Positions 6,471 through 36,937 are shown, numbered from the stretch's first letter. The stretch: 36,937 nt of DNA from a virus (IMGVR_UViG_3300045988_048969:1-36937), one strand, 5' to 3'. The notes: generated by a model from the letters alone, not told the origin. Numbers and translations are program-made.

Positions 6471-7006
6471 AAACAAAGTTGATAGGTAATTTCATTCGTA
6501 AATCAAGAAATGAAGATGGAAACCTAGAAATAACATTTGAATTAACTGAGCCAATATACGAATCATACGCTCAGACACTCGAAAAAGGGGCATACAGCGT
6601 GATTATAGATTCGGTTAAACATTTACGTACAAACAATCAGAATCGGCTTATGTGGGCATTAATCAAGGAAATAAGTGAAAACGAAAACGCTAGCTACAAC
6701 GATACATGGGATATGTATTGCGAGTTTTTGAGAATGGCAAAAGCTTTATATACATATGTTTCAGTGTTGAAAGATGGTGTTGATTCGTTGGCTCAAGCAC
6801 ATGGAGTTAGGGCAGTTCAAATATTGGGTACTGAGGTTAGAGACAATGGAAATGAATTTGTAAATTGTAGATTGTTTTTAGGCTCATCACAAATGGACAC
6901 AAAACAAATGGGAGTGTTAATTGATTGCATACTAGATTATGCAGAACAATTAGGAATCAGTACTCAATATTATTTAGATAAAGGAATCAAGGAGGTACAA
7001 GAATAA
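6467..7006 (+). CDS. ninB: NinB/Orf-like recombination mediator
   Basis: RTNNQNRLMWALIKEIS resembles lambda NinB RSLDQNRKLWACLGDVS (from memory). TTGA overlap with the upstream stop. Confidence 0.55.
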   Translation: MKTKLIGNFIRKSRNEDGNLEITFELTEPIYESYAQTLEKGAYSVIIDSVKHLRTNNQNRLMWALIKEISENENASYNDTWDMYCEFLRMAKALYTYVSVLKDGVDSLAQAHGVRAVQILGTEVRDNGNEFVNCRLFLGSSQMDTKQMGVLIDCILDYAEQLGISTQYYLDKGIKEVQE

Positions 7007-7371
7007 AGTTTGTAATAAAAGGAAAGCTTGATGGGTTGAATGAATATATTAATGCTTGCAGAACGAATCGTTACAAAGGAGCAGAAATGAAGAAAAAGAA
7101 TGAGCGATTAGTTATGGCGTACATTCTTAGAGCAGTAAACTTTGGCGAAATTTACGAGGTTAAGAACTACCCAATTAGATTAAATATCAATTGGTATGAG
7201 CCAAATAACAAAAGAGATATAGACAATATCACATTCGCTACTAAATTCATTCAAGATTCATTAGTTAGAACAGGGATATTAGAAGATGATTCAAGGAAAT
7301 ACATTAATCAAGTGAATCATTCAGTATTTACAGATAAGGAGAATCCAAGGATAGAGGTAGAAATTATATGA
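7003..7371 (+). CDS. rusA: RusA-like Holliday junction resolvase, ATA start
   Basis: Frame opens after TAA 6979-6981 with no canonical start before TTG 7036. ATA 7003 lies 7 nt after GGAGG 6991-6995. N-terminus KFVIKGKLDGLNEYINACRTNRY is typical of Gram-positive phage RusA. Confidence 0.75.
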   Translation: MKFVIKGKLDGLNEYINACRTNRYKGAEMKKKNERLVMAYILRAVNFGEIYEVKNYPIRLNINWYEPNNKRDIDNITFATKFIQDSLVRTGILEDDSRKYINQVNHSVFTDKENPRIEVEII

Positions 7372-7713: not shown

Positions 7714-8502
7714 ATAGCAGTAATTAGAGTTATCAAGAACAGAAACTATACAGTGATGAGCAATACACATTTAAAAGATAAGCGCTTATCACTAAAAGCA
7801 ATAGGCTTGTTAAGTGTTGTTCTTAGCTTACCGGATGATTGGCATTATACAGTAAATGGGTTAGTTGGAATTGTAAAAGACGGTGAAAGAGCAGTAAATG
7901 GAGCATTATCTGAATTAAAGGAAAATGGATATTTAAGAATAGAAAAACTTTATCCAAATAAAGATGGAAGAAGTAAAATTGAATATCAATATATTTTCAG
8001 TGAAACGCCTCAAGACCTACAAAACGTACCTCTTGAGCAAGACATACAAAATGTAGGTCTACATAATGTAGGACTACAAGATGTAGGTTTACATAATGTA
8101 GGACTACAAGATGTAGGTTTACAAAATGTAGGTACTTATAAATATACTAATAAACCAAATACTAATAACAAAAATACTAATAACAAAGTAAGTAAACACA
8201 AATACGGTGAATATTCACACGTATTACTTACAGATAAAGAACACACACACCTATTAGATTTATATGGAGATTCATTAGATGAGCATATAAAGATATTAGA
8301 TGAGTACATTGAAACATCCGGAAAGAAATACAAAAACCATTCACTAGTGATTCAGAAGTGGGTTCATGATGAATGGTTGAAAAGAAATAAAGATAAGCCT
8401 ATCACACTTGATTCAAAGTTTTATGCAGAGCAAAACACAAAAACAGATAAAGAAGTACAAGATGAATTTAACAGGCTTAGAGCACAACTATTTGGAGCAT
8501 AG
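7714..8502 (+). CDS. Replication initiator / replisome organizer (winged-helix N-domain, DnaD-like C-domain)
   Basis: RNYTVMSNTHLKDKRLSLKAIGLLSVVLSLPDDW...LSELKENGYL. Probable ATA 7714 start 6 nt after GGAGGTG 7701-7707; alternatives TTG 7696 and GTG 7705 lack an SD. Confidence 0.7.
   Translation: MAVIRVIKNRNYTVMSNTHLKDKRLSLKAIGLLSVVLSLPDDWHYTVNGLVGIVKDGERAVNGALSELKENGYLRIEKLYPNKDGRSKIEYQYIFSETPQDLQNVPLEQDIQNVGLHNVGLQDVGLHNVGLQDVGLQNVGTYKYTNKPNTNNKNTNNKVSKHKYGEYSHVLLTDKEHTHLLDLYGDSLDEHIKILDEYIETSGKKYKNHSLVIQKWVHDEWLKRNKDKPITLDSKFYAEQNTKTDKEVQDEFNRLRAQLFGA
8019..8188. repeat. Putative origin: 15-bp iterons (core ATGTAGG) plus AT-rich 15-bp repeats inside the organizer gene
   Basis: Units at 8046, 8061, 8076, 8091, 8106 and 8121, plus a degenerate copy at 8019. 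8061-8090 is perfectly duplicated at 8091-8120. TACTAATAACA recurs with 15-bp period at 8160 and 8175. Confidence 0.6.
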
Positions 8503-13199: not shown

Positions 13200-13394
13200 A
13201 TAGAAATGAATTATGAAGAAAGGATTAAAGAGTTAATTTCTAAAAACAACAGACTAGGAAGGAAGAATATTGAATTGGAGCAGACTTTAAAAGAAAGAAA
13301 CGCAACAATTCATACTCAAGCTAAAGAAATTAAGAAATTAAGAAGTGAAGTTGGCGAATTAAAGGATAGATTGTATAAGGTATACAGTTCATGA
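13200..13394 (+). CDS. Coiled-coil hypothetical protein (start ambiguous: ATA 13200 or ATG 13206)
   Basis: AGGAGG 13186-13191 lies 8 nt before ATA 13200 and 14 nt before ATG 13206. Track GTG 13191 lies inside the SD. Confidence 0.5.
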   Translation: MEMNYEERIKELISKNNRLGRKNIELEQTLKERNATIHTQAKEIKKLRSEVGELKDRLYKVYSS

Positions 13395-13717
13395 GTACAT
13401 ATGAAGATATTAAGAGACACTTCTTGTGTGAATGCCAATCGTACACATATTATGAGCAAAAGATAGCAGAGCTACAAAGAGATGAAGCAATTTATCCATT
13501 AAAAGCCGAGCTATTCTTGGCTCATGCAGATTATGCAAGAAGAATGAATTATGTAAAAGACAAATTAAGCCAACTTGATGATACAACTCGAACAATGATT
13601 GAGTATAGATATATAAAGGGATTCAGTGCAGAAAAAACATCTAATATTGTAGGTTATGCAAGAGAAGAAATTCCAAGAAAAATAAATAAGAACTTAAAGA
13701 AAGTGCTCACAATGTGA
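13391..13717 (+). CDS. Sigma-70 region-4-like late transcriptional activator (putative)
   Basis: MIEYRYIKGFSAEKTSNIVGYAREEIPRKINKNLKKV HTH; last gene before the packaging/late block. Confidence 0.5.
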   Translation: MSTYEDIKRHFLCECQSYTYYEQKIAELQRDEAIYPLKAELFLAHADYARRMNYVKDKLSQLDDTTRTMIEYRYIKGFSAEKTSNIVGYAREEIPRKINKNLKKVLTM

Positions 13718-13726
13718 GCATTTTTT
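13704..13726 (+). terminator. Rho-independent terminator (palindrome TGCTCACAaTGTGAGCA plus T6)
   Basis: Arms 13704-13711 and 13713-13720, then TTTTTT 13721-13726. Confidence 0.6.
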
Positions 13727-13743
13727 CATGTAATAATTGTTTT

Positions 13744-13819
13744 AGCAGGATAGAGCAGTAGTAGCTCACTAGTCTTATTAGCTAGAGGTCGAATGGTGCA
13801 AATCCTTCTCCTGCAACCA
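13744..13819 (+). tRNA. tRNA, anticodon UAU (reads AUA), initiator-like identity elements, CCA encoded
   Basis: Hand-folded 76-nt cloverleaf. Acceptor AGCAGGA/TCCTGCA (A1xA72), D stem GAGC/GCTC, anticodon stem CTAGT/GCTAG, loop CTTATTA, variable AGGTC, T arm GAA(T)GG-TGCAAAT-CCTTC, then A73 and CCA. Confidence 0.7.
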
Positions 13820-13901
13820 TGTTTACAAAGCCTATCAGTAAGTCCTTCCCAAATTAGATGTTAAATACCAACAATGGCATACAATTAGGCTTTGATATAT
13901 T

Positions 13902-13926
13902 ACCGAGCGTTTGTCTCGGTTCTTTT
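13902..13926 (+). terminator. Rho-independent terminator downstream of the tRNA
   Basis: Stem ACCGAG(13902-13907)/CTCGGT(13915-13920), then TCTTTT. Confidence 0.5.
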
Positions 13927-13944
13927 AATAATAAGGAGGAGAAT

Positions 13945-14210: not shown

Positions 14211-14713
14211 ATGGAGATTATTAGATTAAAAATCAATGACATTACACCTTACGAAAAGAATGCAAAGATTCATACTGAAGCACAAATTGAACAAATTAAG
14301 AAATCTATTCAAGAATTTGGTATGAATGACCCAATCGCAGTATGGGGGGGAACAATACCATAGTTGAAGGTCATGGGCGATTAGAAGCTTTAAAGCAATT
14401 AGGCTATACAGAAGTTGACTGTATCAGACTAGACCATTTGACAGATGAAGAAAGAAAAGCTTATACACTTGCTCACAACAAAATCAATATGAATACAGGA
14501 TTCGACATTGATTTGTTAGACGAAGAATTAGACAGTATCGAAGATATTGATATGTCTGATTTTGGATTTACCGAGCAAGATATTGATTGGGATAATGTAG
14601 AAGATTTAAGTGATGATTCTTATGAAGAACCTCAACATGAAATGTGGAAATGCCCTCAGTGTGGACACGTAGATAGAAAAGAACACTTTAAAGGAGTTCG
14701 TGACAATGAATAA
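14211..14713 (+). pseudogene. ParB/Srx-like nuclease-domain protein with C-terminal zinc ribbon, frame broken at a G7 tract
   Basis: ATG 14211 behind GGGGGA. N-part INDITPYEKNAKIHTEAQIEQIKKSIQEFGMNDPIAVWGG stops at TAG 14361-14363. The continuation NNTIVEGHGRLEALKQLGYTEV... lies in the -1 frame; one extra G in G7 (14344-14350) restores a single ORF. Confidence 0.7.
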
Positions 14714-14725
14714 AACTATACCTAA

Positions 14726-15481
14726 TTGAAAATATTTCTAAGCGCATTAGAGGTGCAACGAGGTAAGAAATCATTATCAAGAATCTTAGTCGAGCAAGGC
14801 ATTCAAATGAAGTATAACCTTATGTCTTATTACTACCTAAGAAAGAATTTAAATGACGCATATTTCATAAAAGAGAACAGTCAATTAGTAATCATAGACA
14901 GTGGAGCGCATAGTTTCCAAAAGGGTACAAAAGTTGATTGGGTAGAATATACAAAACAATACGCAGAATTTATCAAAGAATTTGATGAGGACAAGGTTGT
15001 AGGATATTTTGAAATGGATGTAGACAACATCTTAGGCTATGAAAAGGTATTAGAGTTAAGAAAAATATTAGAATCTGTATCTGATAAGATTATTCCTGTA
15101 TGGCATAAGAACAGAGGAATACAAGACTTCAAAGATATGTGCAAGAAATATCAAGGTAAGGTTGTAGCAATTACAGGATTCAAGAATGAAGATATTAAAG
15201 ATGAACAATACATTATGTTCTTGAAATATGCAAAGAAATATAATTGCAAGGTTCATTGCCTTGGTATGACAAGAAAAAAAGTGCTTGATAGAGTGCCGTT
15301 TGATTATTGTGATTCAAGTACATGGGTACAACAATCAGTTTATGGGCGTATCAATGGGCTAGGCAAAGTATCAAGAGAAATGTCAAGAACAAATAGAGAA
15401 CAAGTAATGATAGAGAATTATAAGCAATTTATGCAAATGCAAGAAAAATATGAACAAAAATGGAGGAACGTGAATAAATAG
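14726..15481 (+). CDS. dpdA: DpdA-like (TGT-paralog) 7-deazaguanine DNA transglycosylase, putative
   Basis: MKIFLS..., IDSGAHSFQ (compare DSGGFQ), IPVWHK, VHCLGMT and CDSSTW follow the order of DpdA/TGT core motifs as I recall them. TTG start with no clear SD. Confidence 0.6.
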   Translation: MKIFLSALEVQRGKKSLSRILVEQGIQMKYNLMSYYYLRKNLNDAYFIKENSQLVIIDSGAHSFQKGTKVDWVEYTKQYAEFIKEFDEDKVVGYFEMDVDNILGYEKVLELRKILESVSDKIIPVWHKNRGIQDFKDMCKKYQGKVVAITGFKNEDIKDEQYIMFLKYAKKYNCKVHCLGMTRKKVLDRVPFDYCDSSTWVQQSVYGRINGLGKVSREMSRTNREQVMIENYKQFMQMQEKYEQKWRNVNK

Positions 15482-15929
15482 AAATAAGACGATAGCTTTT
15501 AATGCAGTAATGTGTGCATTGTATGTCGTAGCAACGACAATTAACCCAATCGGATATGGAGTATTTCAATTTAGGGTTAGTGAATTAATGACAGTATTTC
15601 CTGTTCATTTCAAAAAAGCACGTATCGGATTGCTTTTAGGAGTAGCAATTGCAAACGCAATGAGTCCATTGGGATTTATTGATGTATTCTGTGGAACATT
15701 AACGGCAGGATTGCTATATTACCTAATTGATAGACTACCGGTACACAATTACATTAAATACATTCTATATTCATTAGAAGTAGGATTAATTATCGGTTGG
15801 GAATTACAGTTGGTATATCATATGCCATTTGCATTAACATTCTTTACTACATTTATTCCGGAAATGATTCTATGTATTATCGGTGATTTATTAGCAAAGA
15901 AATTAAAGCATTATGTAAATATTGATTAG
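15474..15929 (+). CDS. queT: QueT-like queuosine-precursor transporter (ECF S-component), ATA start
   Basis: Multi-TM protein with AVMCALYVVATT...GYGVFQFRVSELMTVFP. Frame opens after TGA 15471-15473; ATA 15474 lies 6 nt after GGAGG 15463-15467. Track ATG 15510 removes the conserved N-terminus. Confidence 0.6.
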   Translation: MNRNKTIAFNAVMCALYVVATTINPIGYGVFQFRVSELMTVFPVHFKKARIGLLLGVAIANAMSPLGFIDVFCGTLTAGLLYYLIDRLPVHNYIKYILYSLEVGLIIGWELQLVYHMPFALTFFTTFIPEMILCIIGDLLAKKLKHYVNID

Positions 15930-17632: not shown

Positions 17633-19036
17633 ATAGAAACATCTAACACACGTAGACCGTGGTTTCAAAACTACCTTAACGAAAGAGGGTATTATGTAGA
17701 TACAAACGCAATTGAGATTATTGAATTGTGTAATAAGTGGTATACAAATACCGAAACAGAATTTCATACGGCATACACCTTGAATAACGAGGAATACACG
17801 CTAGATAAAACAGACTTTGCAAAACGTTTGTGCGAGGATGACGCAAACTTAATTGAAATTCTAGATATAAACGCAACTGAGGACAGTACAACAAATGACA
17901 TTATTTCAGACATTCTAACGAAGAATAGATTTGATGTTATGTATAGGAAGCAAGTTGAGCAAATGTCTGCAAACGGCACAGTAGGAGCTTATGTAACGGT
18001 ATCAAATGCCGAGATTTATGAAGATGGTACATTCAGTGGAGGTGAGATTAGAATCAACTATTGTGATTCAATGAATATACTTCCATTAACTGTTATCAAT
18101 GATGAAATTGTGGAAGTTGCTTTCGTTGGAGTAAATTATGAGAAACTGAAGAAAGTATATGTGATGGTCATGTTCTTAAAAGGGCAAGACGAAAGATATA
18201 TTGCAGAAACACATTACTTTAAAGAAACAGGCGAAGAAATAAAAGAGCGTGCTCAGATTGTTCAATTAGATGTGGTTAAGCCGTTTGCAATTATGAGAAA
18301 TGCAAAGGTCAACAACTTACAAATGCAAGGGTACGGCTTACCTAAAATTTGGAGCGCAATCGCTCCACTAAAAACAATTGATTTAACAATGACAATGTGG
18401 AATCGAGATTTATTGAAATCGGATAAAATCGTTCTTGTGAATGAAGCATTAATGCAGAAAGACGAGAATGGAAAGATTAATATGAATCCACAAATGAAAA
18501 AGATATTCGTTCAGTTAGGTAGAGACAAGTTACCGGAAGAAAAAGCTTTATGGCAGGAATACAATCCAACAGTTAGAACACAAGAAGTTGTACAATCACT
18601 AGAAACGGCATTGAGCATATTATCAATGATGTTTGGATTTGGCACGAAGAAATACACATTTGAGAGTGGAAGAATTGTGACGGCAACAGAATATATCGGT
18701 GAGAATCAAGACGCAATGAAGGAAGTAAATTCACAACGTAAAGAATCTACGGCTTATATTCAAGATATTATTCAAGCAATAGCGTACTTCTATGAGTTAA
18801 CACAAGGCAGAAAGCTTAATATCAATTCATTAGACATTGCTATTGATTATGACGACACATACATTGAGGATAAGCAAAGCACGGCACAAGCGTTAAGAAA
18901 TGACGCATTAACATTTGATATTCCAAGATTAAAAATCATGTACTTCATGAAACAGTATGGATTCACTGAAGAAGAAGCAACGGAATTATTAAACGAAGAA
19001 ATTCAAGATGATGGAGAGGGGGATGACGAAGAATAG
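17633..19036 (+). CDS. Portal protein (SPP1 gp6-like), ATA start
   Basis: Frame opens after TAA 17627-17629. ATA 17633 lies 6 nt after AGGAGG 17621-17626; the next canonical start is TTG 17726, 31 codons downstream. Confidence 0.75.
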   Translation: METSNTRRPWFQNYLNERGYYVDTNAIEIIELCNKWYTNTETEFHTAYTLNNEEYTLDKTDFAKRLCEDDANLIEILDINATEDSTTNDIISDILTKNRFDVMYRKQVEQMSANGTVGAYVTVSNAEIYEDGTFSGGEIRINYCDSMNILPLTVINDEIVEVAFVGVNYEKLKKVYVMVMFLKGQDERYIAETHYFKETGEEIKERAQIVQLDVVKPFAIMRNAKVNNLQMQGYGLPKIWSAIAPLKTIDLTMTMWNRDLLKSDKIVLVNEALMQKDENGKINMNPQMKKIFVQLGRDKLPEEKALWQEYNPTVRTQEVVQSLETALSILSMMFGFGTKKYTFESGRIVTATEYIGENQDAMKEVNSQRKESTAYIQDIIQAIAYFYELTQGRKLNINSLDIAIDYDDTYIEDKQSTAQALRNDALTFDIPRLKIMYFMKQYGFTEEEATELLNEEIQDDGEGDDEE

Positions 19037-20475: not shown

Positions 20476-21084
20476 ATAGCTATTGAATATTTAGATAAGA
20501 GTGGATTGACGCTCTTAATCAGTAAAATTAAATCGGCGTTAGGTGGGAAAGTTGATGTTGAAATTGGTAAAGGCTTATCAACAAATGACTACACAAGCGC
20601 AGAAAAACAAAAGTTAAGTGGTATCGCAAATGGTGCTCAAGTGAACGTGATTGAGTCGGTAAAGGTAAATGGTACGAAGCTAACGCCAAGCTCAAAAGCC
20701 GTAGATGTTACAGTACCGACAAAGACATCGCAATTAACGAATGACAGTGGGTATCAGACAAAAGCAAATGTAGACTCAATCGTTACAGGTAAAGGATATC
20801 AAACGCAATCACAAGTACAATCATTGATTAATTCGGCAGTAGGTAATATTACATCTATTAGATATGAAAAGGTAACGAGCTTACCTGCTACAGGTTCAAA
20901 TGGTGTTATCTATTTGGTAGCACATTCACATGGAACGCAAGATATTTATGATGAATATATTTGGCTTTCAGAAACAAAAACATATGAAAAGATTGGTAAT
21001 ACAGACATTGATTTATCTGCGTATGTTAAGAAGTCAGAATTAACTGCGATTACTACAAACGATTTAAACACAATGTGGGGTTAG
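20476..21084 (+). CDS. Fibre protein (LSTNDYTSAEKQKL repeat type), ATA start
   Basis: Frame opens after TAG 20455-20457. ATA 20476 lies 7 nt after AGGAGG 20463-20468. N-terminus AIEYLDKSGLTLLISKIK precedes track TTG 20506. Confidence 0.65.
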   Translation: MAIEYLDKSGLTLLISKIKSALGGKVDVEIGKGLSTNDYTSAEKQKLSGIANGAQVNVIESVKVNGTKLTPSSKAVDVTVPTKTSQLTNDSGYQTKANVDSIVTGKGYQTQSQVQSLINSAVGNITSIRYEKVTSLPATGSNGVIYLVAHSHGTQDIYDEYIWLSETKTYEKIGNTDIDLSAYVKKSELTAITTNDLNTMWG

Positions 21085-24593: not shown

Positions 24594-25463
24594 ATACCAA
24601 ATGAAATTGCATTAGCTAAAACGTATGTCTCAAATTTGGATGAGGTATATAAGTTAGCTTCAGTTACAGGTGATTTAAACGCAAACGCTACAATGGTACG
24701 AGCAGGAGCAAACGCAAAAGAAATCATCTATCCACAAATTTCTGTTAAAGGTTTAGGAAACTACGATAGAAACAGTGGTTATACAGGTAACTCAGTTAAG
24801 TTAGAATGGAAAACTGCTACATTCGACTATGATAGAGGAACTAAAATCTCAGTTGATACACAAGATAACGCAGAATCAATGAATATTGCATTCGGCATGG
24901 CAGGAGCAGAATTAATGCGTACAAAGGTTGCACCGGAAGCAGACGCTTACACATTCGCTAAGATTGCCGGCACAACAGGAATCACAAAGGTTTCAGAAGA
25001 TTATACAGGTGCAGAAGAGTTCTTGAGTGCATTATTAACGGCTATCACTAAAATGGATGAGGGTGAAGTTCCTAGCGAACAACGTATCTTATATTCAACA
25101 CCAACATTATTAAATAGCGTTAAAGCATTAGATACATACAAATCACGTGAAGCTTTACAAGGATTTGCAAAAATTGTTCCTGTACCTTCAACACGATTCT
25201 ATACAAAAATTAAATTGTTGAGTGGAAAAGATACAGAGTTAGAGGGCGGATACGAAAAGGCAGAGGATGGACACGCAATCAACTTCTTAATTGTTCACAA
25301 ACCTGCCGTAATGAAATGGGATAAACACACTGTTTCAAATGTGATTCCTGCAAGCAATAACATCGAATCAGATTCAGATGTATTGAAATATCGTAAATAT
25401 GGAATCGTTGATGTATACCAAAATAAGGTAGCAGGTATTTACTTATCTGCTAGTGCTAAGTAA
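24594..25463 (+). CDS. Major capsid protein, ATA start
   Basis: Frame opens after TAA 24588-24590. ATA 24594 lies 9 nt after AAGGAGG 24578-24584. N-terminus PNEIALAKTYVSNLDEVYK is typical of this capsid type and precedes track TTG 24636. Confidence 0.75.
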   Translation: MPNEIALAKTYVSNLDEVYKLASVTGDLNANATMVRAGANAKEIIYPQISVKGLGNYDRNSGYTGNSVKLEWKTATFDYDRGTKISVDTQDNAESMNIAFGMAGAELMRTKVAPEADAYTFAKIAGTTGITKVSEDYTGAEEFLSALLTAITKMDEGEVPSEQRILYSTPTLLNSVKALDTYKSREALQGFAKIVPVPSTRFYTKIKLLSGKDTELEGGYEKAEDGHAINFLIVHKPAVMKWDKHTVSNVIPASNNIESDSDVLKYRKYGIVDVYQNKVAGIYLSASAK

Positions 25464-25935: not shown

Positions 25936-26351
25936 TAGGTTTCTTTGAAGATTCAATTACACTTGTAAATCACTACTATGACACATTGACAAGAGAAGAT
26001 AGATTTGAAGTTTCTATTCTTGATAAATGTATGTGGAGACAATCGACTGTTAGAACGGCGAACGGTAATATTCTGAGCATAGCCACATCCACAAATATTA
26101 CCATTCTATATCGTGAAGGATATGTTGAACCTTACGCATATGCGAAACTTTCAAATGATGAGAAACAAAAGCACTTCACATTAAATACAGATAAGACAGA
26201 TTTTGTATTCTTTGGAGAAGTAAAAGAAGACTTATCTAGTATTAAATCAATCAACGAAGCAAAAAAGAAATACAAATGGACAACCGTTCAAAGCGTAACA
26301 GATTGTACTAATGTCGATATGTTGAAGCATTGGGAGGTTGTTGGTCAATAG
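25932..26351 (+). CDS. Head-closure / head-tail joining protein
   Basis: ATG 25932 with ATGA overlap. Confidence 0.5.
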   Translation: MIGFFEDSITLVNHYYDTLTREDRFEVSILDKCMWRQSTVRTANGNILSIATSTNITILYREGYVEPYAYAKLSNDEKQKHFTLNTDKTDFVFFGEVKEDLSSIKSINEAKKKYKWTTVQSVTDCTNVDMLKHWEVVGQ

Positions 26352-26710
26352 GAATGAAAGTCAAACTTGATGTTGAATCAATTCCCCAAATTAAACAATC
26401 AAGAGGACTTGAAGAACGTGGACGAGTGCAACAAATGATTGACTCTGAAGTCATTAGGCTTATGACCCCTTATACGCCTAGAGACACAGGAGCATTGATT
26501 AACTCGGCTACAAGAAATACTCAAATCGGTAGTGGATTAGTAAAGCAAGGTGGACCAAGTGCTCCATATGCAAGACGTTGGTATTATAACAAAGAGAATG
26601 CTCATTTCGTTGGTGGTAAATCAGACCATGGGTTTAAAAAATCTATGCGAAATGGTGGAGCAGAGACAATCTTAAAGAAAGCGCAAAAAATGATAGGAGG
26701 TAGTGAATGA
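26348..26710 (+). CDS. HK97 gp10-like tail-head joining protein (start ATA 26348 or ATG 26354)
   Basis: ATAG overlap with the upstream stop. GGGAGG 26332-26337 lies 10 nt before the ATA and 16 nt before the ATG. Confidence 0.55.
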   Translation: MGMKVKLDVESIPQIKQSRGLEERGRVQQMIDSEVIRLMTPYTPRDTGALINSATRNTQIGSGLVKQGGPSAPYARRWYYNKENAHFVGGKSDHGFKKSMRNGGAETILKKAQKMIGGSE

Positions 26711-27126
26711 CAGTATCAAAAGCGTTGATTCAATGGCTTTATGGCTACGGAAATATACAGATAGATGAACGTATTGAAACGGATGTTTTAGCGCAACAAG
26801 CTATCTCTTATGCGTTGTATAAAGAACCTAACGCAATTGTAGATACATACATTGACGGCTCTCAAATGCGTACAGAATACTACACGTTTCTAGCACGTAG
26901 GAATACACAAATTGAATCAGAAAGACAAGATAACAATGTTTTTCTAGAAGAATTAGAAAATTGGATTGACGAAAAGAATTTAAGTGGGGAATTACCACAA
27001 CTAGACGGAAACAGACATTGTGATGATGTTTCCGTTTCAAGTGGTTTATATCTATACACAAATGAGGATAATCAAGCAGTATATGCGTTGACTATTCAAA
27101 TTAAATACAGAAAGGAGCTTAATTAA
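26707..27126 (+). CDS. Tail completion protein
   Basis: ATGA overlap behind AGGAGG; position. Confidence 0.5.
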   Translation: MTVSKALIQWLYGYGNIQIDERIETDVLAQQAISYALYKEPNAIVDTYIDGSQMRTEYYTFLARRNTQIESERQDNNVFLEELENWIDEKNLSGELPQLDGNRHCDDVSVSSGLYLYTNEDNQAVYALTIQIKYRKELN

Positions 27127-27632
27127 TAGCAACTCAAGGAACTGAAGTAACTACAGGACAGACAGTCAAGAAGTATATGATTGGATTGTTCTTACAAATG
27201 GGAGAAGGTTACAAGCGAATTAAAAAGTCTACAACTTTAGATATTTCATTCAATAGTGAAACTGAAACGTATGACTTTATCGCAGATAAGAACCCAACAG
27301 AATCATTAAAGAGTTATTCACCTCAGATTTCGCAAGATTTAACAATGATTAAAGGCGAAGATGACTTTGAATACATTTACGAACAAATGATGAAATCCGT
27401 ACCAAACAACGAAGAAGTAAATACAAAAGCTTTACTTGTATTTATGTTTGACGGAGACAAAACTAAAGGCTATAAAGCGTGGGAAGTTGACGCTAAATTG
27501 ATTTTCGATACATTAAGTGGTGTCGATTCAAAAATCAACTTCAATATTAACTTTGCAAGCGACATTCGTGTCGGTACTGCAAGGGTAGCAGATGGAGCAG
27601 TAACATTTACAGAAGGCACATCAGAAGTATAA
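27126..27632 (+). CDS. Major tail protein, ATA start
   Basis: Frame opens after TAA 27120-27122. ATA 27126 lies 8 nt after AAAGGAG 27111-27117. N-terminus ATQGTEVTTGQTVKKY precedes track ATG 27177. Confidence 0.7.
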   Translation: MATQGTEVTTGQTVKKYMIGLFLQMGEGYKRIKKSTTLDISFNSETETYDFIADKNPTESLKSYSPQISQDLTMIKGEDDFEYIYEQMMKSVPNNEEVNTKALLVFMFDGDKTKGYKAWEVDAKLIFDTLSGVDSKINFNINFASDIRVGTARVADGAVTFTEGTSEV

Positions 27633-28593: not shown

Positions 28594-31173
28594 ATATCAG
28601 ACGGAACATTAAAGTTTGATACAAAGATTGATACAAGTGGTCTAGAGAATGGAATGAAATCCGTTCATGAAGTCACAAGTGGAGCTACAAATGCAATTAA
28701 GGAAACTTCAAAAGCAATCGACAAGTTAGGTTCTGATGGTTCAAAAGCACCACCAAAGATTAGAGATAAACTTAAAGATTTAAATGATGAGCAAAAGAAT
28801 ACACAAACAGAAACACAAGAAACAGGTTCTAAATTTGATGTATTTAAACAAGTAGGAAACAGTGCCTTAGAGTCAATTCAAGGTGGATTTGATGGATTGC
28901 TAGAGAAGATTCAGAATATTAGTCCGGAAGCTACTGCAATCACTGAAACCTTAACAGGATTAGGCGTAGGAGGTGTTGTAGGCGTTACTGCCGTAGCAGG
29001 AGCTATTGGTGGTATGGCATTAGCAATTAAGACAGGTGTCAATCAAGCTACAGAACTAGATGACGCTATGGCTAAATTCCAAGCTCAGACAGGTGCTTCA
29101 AGTAATGAAATGAGCAAATTTAAAAACATTGCTCGTGATGTTTGGTCAAACAATTTCGGTGAAGATGTTTCAGATGTTGCCGATATGATGGGCAGAGTCA
29201 AGCAACAAATGCAAGGCATAAGTGATGTTGACCTAAAGAACGTGACAGAGGATTTATTAACTTTAAGAGATACATTCGATATGGATGAGAATGAAACTCT
29301 TAGAGGTGCTCAACAATTAATGAAGCAGTTCGGAATCACTTCTCAAGAAGCTTTCGACCTTATGGCTACAGGTGCTCAGAATGGTTTAAACAAATCAGAT
29401 GAGCTAGGCGACAACATTTCAGAATACTCCGGTAAATTCGCACAAGCAGGATATTCGGCAGATGAATATTTCCAATTAATGCAGAATGGATTAGATGGTG
29501 GAGCTTATAACCTTGATAAAGTAAATGACGCAATCAACGAAGTTACCACAAGGTTAGTTGATGGAACTATTGAAGGAGCTTTAGATAGTTTTGATACCAA
29601 GACGCAAGATGTCTTTAAAGCTTGGCAAGAAGGAAGAGCAACTCAGAAAGATGTTGTAAATGCGATTGTAGAAGATATTTCAAAGACTACAAATGAACAA
29701 GAAAAGTTGAATAAATCTGCAACGGCTTTCGGCACAATGGGAGAAGATTTCAACGCCGGATTCATTCAGTCCTTAACGACAGTAGGGAATAAATATAAAG
29801 ATGTAGAAGGGGCAATGGATAAAGTCAAAGAAATTGCAAATGGTGGCTTAAAGAACGCTTTAAGTGGCTTAGGGCGTGCATTTCTTGATTCATTTACTCC
29901 AATAGGCGAACTTATTACCCCTATTCTTGCAGGTATCATCGGATTAATTACAGTAGCTATACAAGGTATTCAACAAGGATTTGCTAAAGTTGGTGATGTA
30001 ATTTCAAATGTATTAAGCAAGATTGATACAAGTGGAATTACAGAATTGACAAGTCAAGTTTCAGAGGTGTTAGCTCCTGCTTTTGATGAGGTCAGAAAAG
30101 CGATTGACGAAATGAAAGTTGCACTTGAACCTATTGCAAAAGAAATTTTAAGCAAGATAGGCAGTGCAATTCAAAATGTAGTAAACCAAGCTCAAAAGAT
30201 TCTTAGCGTTGTAGGACCACCGATTCTAGCAATCATTAAGAAGATTATTCAAACAGTTATCGGTATGACTCCTGTAATAACATCTATTCTTCAAGTAGTT
30301 GGAAGTGTGGTAAGTGGAATCATTTCATTTATAACTATGGTTGTGACGTATGTAGGAACTGCAATTGCAACAATACTAGGATTTATCATGCCTATTGTTC
30401 AAATTGTAGCTACAATTGTAGCGAATATTTGGTCTGTAATATTAACGGTTGCTCAGAATATTTGGAGCAAAGTTAGCGAAGTAGTTACTGCTATTATTGG
30501 ATTCGTAAGCAATTTATTTAAGACGGTTTCGGACATCATAAACAAAATTTGGAGTAAGATTCAAGATTCCATGAACAAGGTAAGAGACAAGGTTCAAGGT
30601 GTTATTGATAATATTAATAAATATTTCAATAATGTTAAGAGTACTGTTTCTGATGTATTTAATGGCATTTGGTCTAAAGTTCAAGGTGTAATGGATAATG
30701 TAGGAAATAAAATTTCAAATGTTTTACAAGGAATACAGAATGCATGGAGCGGTTTAAAAGGGTTTGTAGGTGGTGTATTCGGTGGAATTGAAGGAGCAGT
30801 AGGTTCATTAGTCTCTAGTGTAAAAGGAATGGTAAATGGTGTTATCGGTGGCATTAACGGTGCAATCGGTATCATCAATAAGATTCCCGGAGTGCACATT
30901 GGAAGGATTCCTAGACTAGAGCGTGGTGGTGTATTAAAACGTGGTCAAATCGGTTTATTAGAAGGTAATGGAGCAGAAGCAGTCGTACCTTTAGAAAAAA
31001 ATAAAGCGTGGATTCGTGCCGTAGCTAAAGATATGGCTCAAATCATGCCTAGCGTTACGACAAATAACAATGGACAGACTATCAACTTCTACAATAAAGC
31101 TCAAAGTCCGGATGAAATCGCTAGAATGTTGCGAATGCAAGCAAGATATGGATATGGAGGTGTTGTTCAATAG
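28594..31173 (+). CDS. Tape measure protein, ATA start
   Basis: Frame opens after TGA 28591-28593. ATA 28594 follows AAGGAGGTGG 28576-28585. N-terminus SDGTLKFDTKIDTSGLENG is typical of TMPs; long Gly/hydrophobic and IWSK repeat region. Confidence 0.8.
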   Translation: MSDGTLKFDTKIDTSGLENGMKSVHEVTSGATNAIKETSKAIDKLGSDGSKAPPKIRDKLKDLNDEQKNTQTETQETGSKFDVFKQVGNSALESIQGGFDGLLEKIQNISPEATAITETLTGLGVGGVVGVTAVAGAIGGMALAIKTGVNQATELDDAMAKFQAQTGASSNEMSKFKNIARDVWSNNFGEDVSDVADMMGRVKQQMQGISDVDLKNVTEDLLTLRDTFDMDENETLRGAQQLMKQFGITSQEAFDLMATGAQNGLNKSDELGDNISEYSGKFAQAGYSADEYFQLMQNGLDGGAYNLDKVNDAINEVTTRLVDGTIEGALDSFDTKTQDVFKAWQEGRATQKDVVNAIVEDISKTTNEQEKLNKSATAFGTMGEDFNAGFIQSLTTVGNKYKDVEGAMDKVKEIANGGLKNALSGLGRAFLDSFTPIGELITPILAGIIGLITVAIQGIQQGFAKVGDVISNVLSKIDTSGITELTSQVSEVLAPAFDEVRKAIDEMKVALEPIAKEILSKIGSAIQNVVNQAQKILSVVGPPILAIIKKIIQTVIGMTPVITSILQVVGSVVSGIISFITMVVTYVGTAIATILGFIMPIVQIVATIVANIWSVILTVAQNIWSKVSEVVTAIIGFVSNLFKTVSDIINKIWSKIQDSMNKVRDKVQGVIDNINKYFNNVKSTVSDVFNGIWSKVQGVMDNVGNKISNVLQGIQNAWSGLKGFVGGVFGGIEGAVGSLVSSVKGMVNGVIGGINGAIGIINKIPGVHIGRIPRLERGGVLKRGQIGLLEGNGAEAVVPLEKNKAWIRAVAKDMAQIMPSVTTNNNGQTINFYNKAQSPDEIARMLRMQARYGYGGVVQ

Positions 31174-32039
31174 ATATCAATAAAGTAAGAGTTATTGTCC
31201 GTAGGGATGATGGCAAACAATTTGAAATTGATAACAAAAGATGGAGAATACCATCTAGTGATGGCTTAGATGGATTTGATTATGTAGCACCTTCATACAC
31301 GACTCAAGACAATGCATTCGGAAATGGTGCTAGATTAATCGGTTCACGTATTCCAACGAAAGAAAGAAGCGTGAAAGCTACCTTCAAAGGTTCGCTAGAA
31401 GAAAAAAGAGAAGAAAGGGAGAAGCTACGGCGCTTCTTCCAATATTCTCATGTATTTGATGTGATAGTTGAGTACATGGGAGAAAAGAAATATTGTAGAG
31501 GTCGTTTATATGCGTATAGCTTGCCTACAGTTAACATCTACAAAGATTTGGAGCTTAACTTTACAATTCTATGCACACAACCTTTATTGCTTTCATTTGA
31601 TGATTTCGCAAGGAATATAGCAGAAATTGGAGAAGGTTTAGCGTTCAATTTCGAAATACCGGAAACAGGCGTGAACTTTGGAACATTTACATTCGCTAGA
31701 GAAATCTATATTGATAATCAAGGAGATACAGAAACATACTGTAGAGCCGTTATTGAAGCATTTGGAGAGGTAACAAATCCGAAACTATTCAATAAAGATA
31801 AATATATTCGTGTATTAGATACACTACACAATGGTGATGTGTTAGAAATTGATTTAGTTTCAGAACCTATTTCGATTAAAAAGAATGGTGTGAATTGTAT
31901 CGGCAAAGTTGATAGAACCTCATCATTCAATGATATGACGATTCAGTTAGGTGAGAATATCATAGGATATACGGCAGACAATGGAGATACGAATCTAGCT
32001 TGCACGGTTTATTACAATGAAAGGTATTTAGGTTTATAG
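31170..32039 (+). CDS. Distal tail protein (Dit), ATA start
   Basis: Frame opens after TAG 31122-31124 with no canonical start until GTG 31371. ATA 31170 lies 9 nt after GGAGG 31156-31160 and overlaps the TMP stop (ATAG). Confidence 0.7.
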   Translation: MDINKVRVIVRRDDGKQFEIDNKRWRIPSSDGLDGFDYVAPSYTTQDNAFGNGARLIGSRIPTKERSVKATFKGSLEEKREEREKLRRFFQYSHVFDVIVEYMGEKKYCRGRLYAYSLPTVNIYKDLELNFTILCTQPLLLSFDDFARNIAEIGEGLAFNFEIPETGVNFGTFTFAREIYIDNQGDTETYCRAVIEAFGEVTNPKLFNKDKYIRVLDTLHNGDVLEIDLVSEPISIKKNGVNCIGKVDRTSSFNDMTIQLGENIIGYTADNGDTNLACTVYYNERYLGL

Positions 32040-33066: not shown

Positions 33067-33567
33067 ATAGAAAAGAAAAATGGAGGATTTAAACAAATAA
33101 CAAGAAGTATGTATTTTCTAGACAAGATGAATGCAATTGGTGGTGTAGCCGTTGCCGTATTAACATACGTATTAGGTGAGCATTGGTATTTATTTGCGTT
33201 CTTCTTATTTATGAACGTCGTGGATTATATTACAGGGTGCATGAAGTCGGCGATTAATCACAAAATCAATAGCAATAAAGGATGGATTGGAGTCCTTAAA
33301 AAGCTAGGCTATTGGATTATGATTGTAGTTGCGTTCACGTTCAGTGCATTCTTGGTAGAGATTGGAAAAATGCTAGGAATTGATTTCCATGTAACTACAT
33401 TATTAGGTTGGTTTGTATTGGCTTCTTTATGTATTAATGAAGTGCGTAGCATTATTGAGAACCTTGTACAATGTGGATATAGCGTGCCTAGTGTATTAAC
33501 TAAAGGTTTGGAAGTAGCGGATAAAATCGTTAACGAAGACAATGACGAATCAAGTACCTTGGAATAA
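33067..33567 (+). CDS. Holin (Phage_holin_4_1 / toxin-secretion holin type)
   Basis: MNVVDYITGCMKSA...SNKGWIGVLKK...NEVRSIIENL. The start is uncertain: ATA 33067 (8 nt after AAGGAG), ATA 33097, ATG 33109 and ATG 33127 are all in frame. Confidence 0.8.
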   Translation: MEKKNGGFKQITRSMYFLDKMNAIGGVAVAVLTYVLGEHWYLFAFFLFMNVVDYITGCMKSAINHKINSNKGWIGVLKKLGYWIMIVVAFTFSAFLVEIGKMLGIDFHVTTLLGWFVLASLCINEVRSIIENLVQCGYSVPSVLTKGLEVADKIVNEDNDESSTLE

Positions 33568-36175: not shown

Positions 36176-36937
36176 ATAAATTATCAAAGTTTTAAAAAAG
36201 CCGTATTAGGCAAAGCATTCGACATTGACGGATATTATGGTGCGCAGTGTTGGGACGGATTCGCAAAGTACATGATTGATTTAGGCTATCAAGCTATCCA
36301 TTGCACAACAAGTAGCTTTGTTAAGGACATTTGGAACAATCGAAAAACAAATGGTATCTTGAACTATTGTAATGAGGTCTCAATTATGCAACCGGGAGAC
36401 ATTGCGGTATTTAAAGAAGTAGCAGGATGGACTCCATACTCACATATCGCAATCTTTGATTCTGATATTGACGGAAAGCAAGGATGGTTCTTGGGTCAAA
36501 ATCAAGGTGGAAAAGGCGGAGCATTCAATTTAATTAAATTACCTTATTTTGCAACCTTTGATACTGCGTTTAGACCTAAATGTTTCGCAAATACAGGAGC
36601 AGTTAAACCAAGCATTCCACAACCTGTAGAAGCAATTGACCAAATCTTGCACGCAGGAAGCTACGTAACATCCGTACAAATGAAGATTGGCAATCAAGGA
36701 TTGAAACAAATCAATGGCGATTTATGCGCATACCTTGCACAATTAGGTGGTTGGTTTCCAATTCGTATGGTTGACAAAGTTCGCTATTCTGATGGATATA
36801 ATGATAACGTATTGCATACAACAAATGCCGTTGTCTACGTTACAAGAATCCGTGTTGATGAAGTCAACGTGCAAAAGAATCTTGCGAAAATCGGTGGAAT
36901 TTGGGTAAATTGTGGTCCATTAATTGAAGTAGCATAA
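36176..36937 (+). CDS. CHAP-domain endolysin with C-terminal SH3b-like cell-wall-binding domain, ATA start
   Basis: Frame opens after TAA 36158-36160. ATA 36176 lies 9 nt after AGGAGG 36161-36166. The catalytic-Cys motif YYGAQCWDG (TGT 36248-36250) lies upstream of the first ATG (36272); His motif YSHIAIF; ends TAA 36935-36937. Confidence 0.85.
   Translation: MNYQSFKKAVLGKAFDIDGYYGAQCWDGFAKYMIDLGYQAIHCTTSSFVKDIWNNRKTNGILNYCNEVSIMQPGDIAVFKEVAGWTPYSHIAIFDSDIDGKQGWFLGQNQGGKGGAFNLIKLPYFATFDTAFRPKCFANTGAVKPSIPQPVEAIDQILHAGSYVTSVQMKIGNQGLKQINGDLCAYLAQLGGWFPIRMVDKVRYSDGYNDNVLHTTNAVVYVTRIRVDEVNVQKNLAKIGGIWVNCGPLIEVA

Follow-up and report, generated by a model that had tools for sequence, protein, structure and literature searches.

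The phage genome analysed here carries a tRNA gene that combines the architecture of a bacterial initiator tRNA with a UAU anticodon, and it has numerous genes that start with ATA. From sequence comparison, we consider it likely that the tRNA is a functional AUA-reading initiator that serves these ATA starts. The window, by which we mean the whole stretch of viral DNA analysed (IMGVR_UViG_3300045988_048969, 36,937 nt), had been given an initial annotation in which the tRNA was read as an initiator retargeted from AUG to AUA. Six lines of evidence now support that reading: the ancestry of the tRNA, its conserved features, the reality of the ATA starts, the swapping of ATA and ATG among relatives, the co-occurrence of the tRNA with ATA starts, and the internal usage of ATA. 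The coordinates of all features are collected in Table 1.

Table 1. Position of the tRNA gene, its flanking elements and the ATA-start genes within the window
Feature	Position	Strand	Evidence and remarks
RusA-like resolvase, ATA start	7003..7371	+	SD AAGGAGGT; profile from residue 2; first canonical start at codon 11
Replication initiation/DnaD-like, ATA start	7714..8502	+	Profiles from residues 2-3; first canonical start at codon 13
Small gene, SD and ATA start	13200..13394	+	ATG 2 codons on; ambiguous from the window alone
Terminator-like hairpin GTGCTCACAATGTGAGCA(T) and T run	13704..13727	+	Closes the upstream regulator gene
Extended -10-like motif TGTAATAAT	13729..13737	+	Read from the sequence; ends 6 nt before A1
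tRNA gene, initiator-derived, encoded CCA	13744..13819	+	Rfam RF00005, covariation, identity to host initiator
Anticodon TAT (UAU), complementary to codon AUA	13776..13778	+	Sequence, covariance-model alignment
Terminator-like hairpin and T run	13902..13928	+	Downstream of the tRNA
phrog_27044 small hydrophobic protein, ATA start	15474..15929	+	Profile position 9 at residue 7; first canonical start at codon 12
Portal protein, ATA start	17633..19036	+	SD AAGGAGGT; first canonical start at codon 31
phrog_24103, ATA start	20476..21084	+	Profile position 4 at residue 4; first canonical start at codon 10
Major head protein, ATA start	24594..25463	+	PHROG 422 positions 3-294 on residues 3-288
Minor head/head-tail, ATA start	26348..26710	+	ATAG overlap; ATG 2 codons on; ambiguous from the window alone
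phrog_3099 (tail region), ATA start	27126..27632	+	TAATA overlap; profile position 4 at residue 10; first canonical start at codon 17
Tape measure protein, ATA start	28594..31173	+	Match from residue 7; first canonical start at codon 20
Dit (distal tail protein), ATA start	31170..32039	+	Match from residue 18; first canonical start at codon 67
Holin-like, ATA start	33067..33567	+	First canonical start at codon 14, profile from residue 23: less decisive
Endolysin, ATA start, runs off the window end	36176..36937	+	Profile from residue 2; first canonical start at codon 32

The tRNA gene has an unpaired 1:72 position and a UAU anticodon

The complete tRNA reads AGCAGGA-UA-GAGC-AGUAGUA-GCUC-A-CUAGU-CUUAUUA-GCUAG-AGGUC-GAA(U)GG-UGCAAAU-CCUUC-UCCUGCA-A-CCA. 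In the acceptor stem (AGCAGGA/UCCUGCA), A1 faces A72, and A73 and an encoded CCA come next. The D stem (GAGC/GCUC) gives an A11:U24 pair, the anticodon stem CUAGU/GCUAG closes the loop CUUAUUA, the variable loop is AGGUC, and the T arm (GAA(U)GG-UGCAAAU-CCUUC) has a bulge in its stem. Directly 3′ of the anticodon is U37 (13779), which is kept in all four of the phage lineages described below. This cloverleaf had been folded by hand in the initial annotation, and each of its base-level statements agreed with the sequence and with the output of cmscan, in which A1·A72 is marked as a non-pair.

A comparison with Rfam was positive: the tRNA matched RF00005 with 48.8 bits (gathering score 29; E 1.3e-7) over model positions 1–71, full length, and this was the sole Rfam match within the window. 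The proposed check with ARAGORN was positive only in part. The program, run on the window, did not call the tRNA, but it did call variant B, a relative with a G:C-richer anticodon stem, as well as the tRNAs of lineages X, Y and Z, and labelled them tRNA-Ile(tat). The miss in the window is therefore a threshold effect. The minimum free energy fold is the cloverleaf with A1 unpaired (−20.2 kcal/mol), an energy not significantly different from that of shuffled sequences (z = −0.96); support for the structure therefore comes from the covariance model and the relatives rather than from folding energy.

Where the canonical initiator has three G:C pairs in the anticodon stem, the window tRNA has A:U at 29:41, G:C at 30:40 and U·G at 31:39, and variant B has G:C, G:C and U·G. 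Only the 30:40 G:C pair of the triple is invariant across the variants. In E. coli, G30:C40 alone of the three pairs is both sufficient and essential, and natural initiators with au/GC/GC and GC/GC/gu stems exist (PMC5389676), although the U31·G39 orientation is absent among the natural variants listed there. The triple, which the initial annotation had noted as absent, is thus incomplete, yet its essential pair is retained.

The tRNA is closest to the initiator tRNA of the host

A relative of the integrase of the window (82% identity) was found on a 97.6-kb contig, beside NanE, TldD/PmbA and SseB proteins identical to ones labelled Holdemanella biformis. The prophage on this contig has 84–97% nucleotide identity to the integrase and early region of the window. 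Because of the flanking proteins and the prophage identity, the host of the phage family would appear to be Holdemanella, with H. biformis (Erysipelotrichaceae, human gut) as the likely species. A megablast search with 12 kb of the window against isolated phages gave no match, and the relatives of the capsid found by tblastn were all below 52% identity and came from mixed hosts. The phage group is very common in the human gut, and the window phage is temperate.

The host tRNA cluster on the 97.6-kb contig contains three CAU tRNAs. One is a clear initiator, with C1·A72, the D stem GAGC/GCUC and G29–31:C39–41 (L179, 4964–5040), and we take the other two to resemble tRNA-Ile2(CAU) and elongator tRNA-Met. 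The window tRNA is 74% identical to the host initiator, and variant B and a further variant, L176, reach up to 81%; identity of the phage tRNAs to the other two host CAU tRNAs is 47–56%. This alignment to the host tRNA-fMet and tRNA-Ile genes had been put forward in the initial annotation as a check, and its outcome is in line with an initiator. Direct alignment to the annotated tRNAs of E. coli K-12 gave 65–79% identity to metZ versus 44–58% to metT, ileX and ileV; the E. coli tRNA-fMet sequence quoted in the initial annotation matches the annotated metZ gene.

The phage tRNA shares with bacterial tRNA-fMet (the H. biformis gene and E. coli metZ/W/V) an unpaired 1:72, G2:C71, C3:G70, A73, A11:U24 and G30:C40, as well as AGGUC in the variable loop and an almost unchanged 3′ end. 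The 11:24 pair is reversed in the elongators of both E. coli and Holdemanella. The tRNA differs from the host initiator in being phage-encoded and in C1→A, G4:C69→A4:U69 (a compensatory change), G31:C39→U31·G39, C34→U and A37→U; the window tRNA also has A:U at 29:41, and its sublineage has a shorter D loop, A18, G55 and the T-stem bulge. Descent from a host initiator gene is supported by these comparisons. Fmt chiefly recognises the 1:72 mismatch in combination with 2:71 and 3:70, with A73 among its determinants (PMC5389676). An unpaired 1:72 with G2:C71, C3:G70 and A73 also disfavours EF-Tu.

When set against an elongator tRNA-Ile, the tRNA departs in all four of the features compared: the 1:72 mismatch, A11:U24, U37 and an identity of 47–53% to the host Ile2-like tRNA. 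The anticodon departs from the CAU of a bacterial initiator, as it is UAU in each of the ∼45 contigs in which a tRNA of this type was found. From its sequence, the phage tRNA is best filed as an initiator-type variant, with initiator descent and architecture, which lacks CAU and the full G:C triple.

Initiator features are conserved across four phage lineages

Relatives were gathered by scanning the viral collection with exact and degenerate patterns and by fetching loci through their terminase and portal proteins. The ∼45 viral contigs fall into four lineages with a mutual tRNA identity of 73–79%. Lineage W, the family of the window (∼36 contigs), has A1·A72, lineages X and Y both have G1·A72, and lineage Z has C1·A72. 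A high-GC tRNA(UAU) of two further loci (L024/L031) was left out of the family; it has a paired U1:A72 and A37, and there were no SD-preceded ATA starts in the DNA examined.

Covariation was examined in the set of 14 distinct tRNA variants. In total, 94.6% of the cells were paired, with compensatory double changes at eight stem pairs, and pairing reached 100% in the acceptor (2–7), D and anticodon stems. When the partners were slid by one to three columns as a control, pairing fell to 36–56%. Position 1:72 is unpaired in 14/14 variants: A72 is invariant and position 1 is A, G or C. Since the mismatch persists while base 1 changes, the unpaired state appears to be under selection. Also invariant in all 14 are G2:C71, C3:G70, A4:U69, A11:U24, G30:C40, the loop CUUAUUA, A73 and CCA, and U31·G39 is present in 13/14.

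The elbow of the window tRNA had raised doubts in the initial annotation. A18, G55 and the T-stem bulge are all there, but the sister variant L176, which has the same acceptor stem as the window tRNA, is canonical in both the D loop (AGUGGUG) and the T arm (GGAGG-UUCAAAU-CCUUC); the odd elbow is therefore derived within the lineage. Nor are both G18 and G19 missing, as had been stated, since alignment with the host initiator places A18-G19 in the D loop. The same alignment pairs A18 with G55 in the window versus G18 with U55 in L176 and the host initiator, a pattern that suggests linked changes at a tertiary contact. U37 is unusual, as are the A18/G55 combination and the T-stem bulge of the window sublineage.

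These data bear on the idea that the gene is a functionless, decaying pseudogene or an attachment-site remnant of a host initiator gene. The lack of an ARAGORN call, the unexceptional folding energy, the odd T loop, the T-stem bulge and U37 would all fit such decay, as would the sporadic occurrence of fMet-like genes with C34T in a few bacteria (five in our scan of a bacterial genome collection, one of them in a degenerating endosymbiont). Decay is, however, difficult to reconcile with ∼45 contigs in four lineages at 73–79% identity, eight compensatory pairs, invariant loops and elbow changes that occur in pairs (A18/G55 in the window; G18/U55 in L176 and the host). The gene is also located between the regulator and packaging modules, away from the integrase end, which argues against an attachment remnant. 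We find this explanation barely credible.

The tRNA gene may form its own transcription unit

The tRNA gene lies between two terminator-like hairpins, and the upstream hairpin GTGCTCACAATGTGAGCA is kept in front of the tRNA in all family contigs. The palindrome at this position was reported on the minus strand by the scan. The extended −10-like motif between this hairpin and the tRNA reads TGCGATAAT in some relatives; it was not reported by a consensus promoter scan, which needs a −35 box. Judged by this motif, the mature 5′ end of the tRNA may coincide with the transcription start or lie very close to it, and the arrangement of the motif and the two flanking hairpins hints that the tRNA is a small transcription unit of its own. 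Within the window we recognised no gene for a formyltransferase, a deformylase, a synthetase or a tRNA-modification enzyme. The neighbouring TGT-like gene seems to belong to a DNA 7-deazaguanine system, and a role as a tRNA enzyme seems less likely.

ATA is used as a start codon

In 13 genes of the window, a strong SD is followed 5–10 nt on by an in-frame ATA. The ATA sits 0–15 codons past the upstream in-frame stop, and the first ATG, GTG or TTG is 2–67 codons further downstream. For the portal, tape measure, Dit and phrog_3099 (gp27126) genes, the PHROG alignments begin upstream of the first canonical start. This is also seen in direct protein alignments: the conserved N-terminal block RGYxVD…WYTNTE of the portal protein precedes its first canonical start, and the capsid N-terminus IPNEIALAKTYV matches MPNNIVLAKTYV of full-length homologues residue by residue. 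In the two genes where an ATG follows two codons after the ATA, the window alone is ambiguous; for one of these (13200..13394), ATA was found in 18/18 distinct relative contexts.

Comparison of relatives shows which codons occur at these positions. Among close relatives, the start-aligned codon of the ATA-start genes is only ever ATA or ATG, with changes in both directions. The phrog_24103 gene toggles between the two, the capsid begins IPNEIALAK… in the window versus MPNNIVLAK… in relatives, and the small terminase starts with ATA in lineage Y (IARPKKEIDIKQFEKLC) versus ATG in the window (MARKKFINQKQFEALC). Elsewhere ATA is retained: in the relatives of the RusA-like gene, whose ATA in the window overlaps the upstream stop as ATAA; in the phrog_3099 orthologue of lineage Y; and in the tape measure genes, which all start with ATA and whose N-termini align as ISDGTLKFDTK in the window, IADGTLLYETK in lineage X and IPDGSLVFDTK in lineage Y. 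The lysogeny genes have canonical starts: the integrase begins with ATG, and the minus-strand HTH repressor-like gene with TTG. The many ATA starts noted in the initial annotation are thus borne out by SD sequences, by profile and protein alignments and by ATA/ATG interchange, and from these comparisons ATA is a real start codon in this phage.

ATA starts accompany the tRNA

To count starts, one rule was applied to all loci, namely the first candidate codon behind a strong SD. ATA was the start in 171/659 cases (26%) in lineage W, 19/48 (40%) in lineage X and 5/20 (25%) in lineage Y. In contrast, 38 related loci without the tRNA gave 15/613 (2.4%), which is the background level of decoy codons (ATT, ATC, CTG, AAA and AAT). 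The Fisher odds ratio is 14.6, a value inflated by shared ancestry as the loci are not independent and the comparison is effectively one of three lineages versus outgroups. Inspection of the apparent ATA starts in the outgroups showed false positives lying 18–544 codons inside open reading frames, and in lineage Y an ATT directly before the real ATG had given the false impression of ATT starts. The tRNA was present in every family locus where the tRNA slot was in range; the six loci without a match end upstream of it.

The ATA start sites follow the consensus A-ATA-G, with A at position −1 in 77/84 distinct ATA contexts (92%) versus 188/331 (57%) ATG starts, and G at position +4 in 57/84 versus 85/331. 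The pattern arises partly from stop-start overlaps (TAATA and ATAG). Conceivably, A(−1) is a partner for the conserved U37, so that a fourth base pair would be formed and A-AUA would be the signal.

Within genes, ATA behaves differently. It makes up about a quarter to a third of the starts of the window and 1.3% of its internal codons. As a share of isoleucine codons, internal ATA is 17% in the window and 20% in the family mean, compared with 37–48% in tRNA-less phages of equal GC content. These values weigh on the possibility that the gene encodes an ordinary elongator tRNA-Ile(UAU) which supplements internal AUA decoding. Phage tRNAs are often explained by such codon compensation (PMC10264068), ARAGORN names the relatives tRNA-Ile(tat) from their anticodon, and the internal ATA share is somewhat higher in lineages X and Y (0.29–0.34). 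However, internal ATA in the window family is not raised and the host already has a tRNA-Ile2(CAU)-like gene, and codon supply is therefore not the explanation. An elongator would also not account for 1:72 being unpaired in all variants while base 1 changes, for A11:U24 in place of pyrimidine 11:purine 24, for the conserved pyrimidine 37, for 47–56% identity to the host Ile2-like and elongator Met tRNAs versus 74–81% to the initiator, or for ATA at start positions. We regard this reading as highly improbable, and the same features leave the fallback of the initial annotation, a plain or degenerate tRNA-Ile(UAU), unsupported.

A second possibility is that the host initiator reads ATA near-cognately, helped by the SD and by translational coupling, and that the phage tRNA is a nuclease-resistant decoy or spare initiator against tRNA-cleaving toxins. 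All the ATA starts have a strong SD, and many overlap or abut an upstream stop (ATAA, ATAG and TAATA), so translational coupling could contribute. Toxins of the VapC type cleave initiator tRNA, and changes in the anticodon loops of phage tRNAs are thought to give resistance (PMC10264068); the loop of the phage tRNA and its closing pair do differ from those of the host initiator. Against this, several ATA starts are 11–51 nt away from the upstream stop, and ATA starts do not exceed the background in related phages that lack the tRNA. In E. coli, tRNA-fMet(CAU) reads AUA at ∼0.1–1% (PMC11744186), which is too low for the capsid and tape measure proteins. A spare initiator would need CAU for the ATG starts, whereas UAU is invariant in the ∼45 contigs. 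On balance, we judge this explanation improbable and retain a functional AUA-reading initiator as the preferred one.

A model for initiation at ATA

We propose that the phage captured a host tRNA-fMet gene whose anticodon then shifted from CAU to UAU, and that ATG changed to ATA at about a quarter to a third of phage genes with the strong SD retained. Host enzymes would charge the tRNA, most likely with isoleucine and possibly with methionine, and would then formylate it, and IF2 would bring it to the P site of the 30S subunit. Here, the full complementarity of UAU and AUA would pass proofreading by IF3, which the host initiator would fail at AUA. The ATA-start genes would be translated efficiently only with the phage tRNA, making ATA a private start codon. 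There is experimental precedent for the decoding step, as anticodon-mutant initiators start translation at matching codons (PMC11744186).

Minor determinants of E. coli IleRS are 4:69, 12:23 and 29:41, and C34 is the dominant identity element for MetRS. The phage tRNA has none of these minor IleRS determinants and has lost C34, and the charging synthetase is therefore ambiguous. A variant of the preferred explanation is that the AUA initiator is charged with methionine, either by MetRS or following modification of U34, so that the proteins would still begin with fMet. A73, G2:C71 and C3:G70, which are common to the host tRNA-fMet, would suit this variant, as would the missing IleRS determinants. 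It is countered by the loss of C34, by the behaviour of anticodon-mutant initiators, which accept the amino acid matching the new anticodon, and by the lack of a recognisable modification enzyme in the phage. Methionine charging seems to us rather unlikely.

More tentatively, the system might represent natural orthogonal initiation, in which many of the lytic genes and some replication genes are placed behind a start that the host initiator reads very poorly and are unlocked by the AUA initiator, with formyl-isoleucine at the N-termini; we view this wider scheme as possible, at somewhat less than even chances. Its purpose is a matter of speculation: it might lock or time lytic functions at the level of translation, or insure the phage against host attack on the normal initiator, for instance by toxins that cleave it. 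An ATA lock may curb leaky expression in lysogens. A strict or simple late-gene switch does not fit, because the RusA-like and replication initiation genes, both of them early-region genes located before the tRNA, start with ATA.

Comparison with known systems

Full-text literature searches turned up no account of any phage or bacterium with a natural initiator that reads AUA. The closest parallels are engineered. Initiators with altered anticodons include the amber tRNA-fMet(CUA), i-tRNA(AAC) and others (PMC11744186; bioRxiv 10.1101/2021.05.25.445580), and phages have been made dependent on a special initiator, for biocontainment, by recoding the start codons of structural genes (bioRxiv 10.64898/2026.07.02.736089). 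As in the window phage, the initiator anticodon and chosen start codons are changed together and genes depend on a special tRNA. These systems are man-made and the tRNA is supplied by the host strain, whereas here the system would be natural, with a phage-borne tRNA, a sense codon (AUA) and the additional conserved U37 and U31·G39.

Two natural groups offer partial likenesses. Phages with stop-codon recoding encode suppressor tRNAs, and the recoded codon is found mainly in phage genes, late and lysis genes among them. There too a phage tRNA alters the meaning of a codon, with a possible role in timing or as a lock, but the change concerns elongation, termination and stop codons; here it would concern initiation at a sense codon, with the elongation code intact. 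AUA is also read in a few TilS-lacking bacteria, such as Mycoplasma mobile, by an elongator tRNA-Ile(UAU), and in mitochondria, which also initiate at AUA, by tRNA-Met. Like the phage tRNA, these molecules read AUA with U34 or a modified C34. They are elongators or have dual use, with a paired 1:72 and a purine at 37, in contrast to the initiator architecture and tRNA-fMet origin of the phage tRNA.

Significance

To our knowledge, and as far as the full-text searches showed, the initiator tRNAs of bacteria and their viruses always have CAU, and the only dedicated non-AUG initiators are laboratory constructs. Non-AUG initiation is generally attributed to mismatched reading by the CAU initiator. 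Because standard gene callers ignore ATA, the capsid and portal proteins of this phage group are shortened at the N-terminus in public protein clusters, which hold >1,200 and >1,400 sequences, respectively. If our interpretation is correct, the tRNA and its ATA starts would provide synthetic biology with a ready-made orthogonal initiation pair. They would also constitute a genetic-code deviation of a new form, acting on start rather than stop codons, and a new means by which a virus controls or protects its own translation.

Sequence context of the ATA start codons

We compared the nucleotides flanking the Shine-Dalgarno-preceded ATA start codons with those flanking ATG starts in the window and the loci (L001-L123) of the phage family characterised by the initiator-like tRNA gene with a UAU anticodon. 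The consensus around the ATA starts was A-ATA-G, with adenine at the −1 position in 92% of ATA starts compared to 57% of ATG starts, and guanine at the +4 position in 68% compared to 26%. In part, this bias arises because of stop-start overlaps (TAATA, ATAG). The conserved U37 of the UAU tRNA, immediately 3′ of the anticodon, could also pair with the adenine at −1. GTG and TTG starts are likewise rare in the phages with this tRNA.

The public protein clusters covering the capsid and portal proteins (P0001 and P0121) are N-terminally truncated, at 275 amino acids (1,224 member sequences) for the capsid and 436 amino acids (1,406 member sequences) for the portal, because gene callers chose the first in-frame TTG rather than the ATA.

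Features discussed, by locus
Feature	Locus	Position	Remarks
Sigma/ArpU-like regulator gene	Window	13391-13717	
UAU tRNA	Window	13744-13819 (+)	
Promoter-like site ATGGCA-16-TATATT with TG, then at once a terminator-like hairpin	Window	13874-13928	Just upstream of first late-region gene
ParB-like gene, TGT-like gene and small hydrophobic protein (phrog_27044)	Window	14342-15929	Immediately downstream of UAU tRNA
Portal gene	Window	17633-19036	
Capsid gene	Window	24594-25463	
Second integrase and Mob_Pre relaxase gene	L179	1605-4690	Adjoin host tRNA cluster
Holdemanella biformis initiator tRNA	L179	4964-5040 (minus)	
Phage tRNA(CAU)	L133	6030-6103	~2.3 kb downstream of portal gene; similar outgroup loci
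Phage tRNA(CAU)	L134	13691-13764	As for L133
fMet-like UAU tRNA	L024	4204-4280	Also in L031
fMet-like tRNA, C34T	L039-L043		Arthrobacter sp., Thermoleophilia MAG, Terracidiphilus MAG, Arsenophonus endosymbiont, Collinsella MAG

Genes and signals adjoining the UAU tRNA

The TGT-like gene matches phrog_887, annotated as queuine tRNA-ribosyltransferase (E 5e-39); Pfam and NCBIfam gave no match for it. Together with its neighbours it probably forms a DpdA-type 7-deazaguanine DNA-modification module, and its product may, less probably, act on the adjoining UAU tRNA. The promoter-like site and hairpin, which lie downstream of the sigma/ArpU-like regulator gene, may constitute a regulated leader of the late operon.

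Comparison with host and other phage tRNAs

In the metagenome contig of the likely host, Holdemanella biformis (L179), the T stem of the initiator tRNA is GUUGG/CCUUC and would therefore contain two U·U mismatches, at 50:64 and 51:63, whereas the phage T stems pair at these positions, with GAA(U)GG or GGAGG opposite CCUUC. The second integrase gene and the relaxase gene of this contig probably mark the insertion of a small integrative mobilisable element next to the tRNA genes.

Near-canonical fMet-like tRNAs with a UAU anticodon were also observed in two viral contigs of 64% GC (L024 and L031). These were rejected as members of the UAU-tRNA family, as U1:A72 is paired, residue 37 is adenine and no Shine-Dalgarno-preceded ATA starts were seen in 11.6 kb. 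In five species-representative genomes, fMet-like tRNA genes were found that have C34T but whose loops are otherwise canonical (A37). These are probably not an adapted system but sporadic copies that are mutant or in decay.

In many related phages that lack the UAU tRNA, a tRNA(CAU) gene is present whose product also resembles an initiator. These outgroup tRNAs have a GAGC/GCUC D stem, a CCGGG/CCCGG anticodon stem, no encoded CCA and, if reading begins at the second base, G1·A72. Phage-borne initiators may be common in this phage supergroup.
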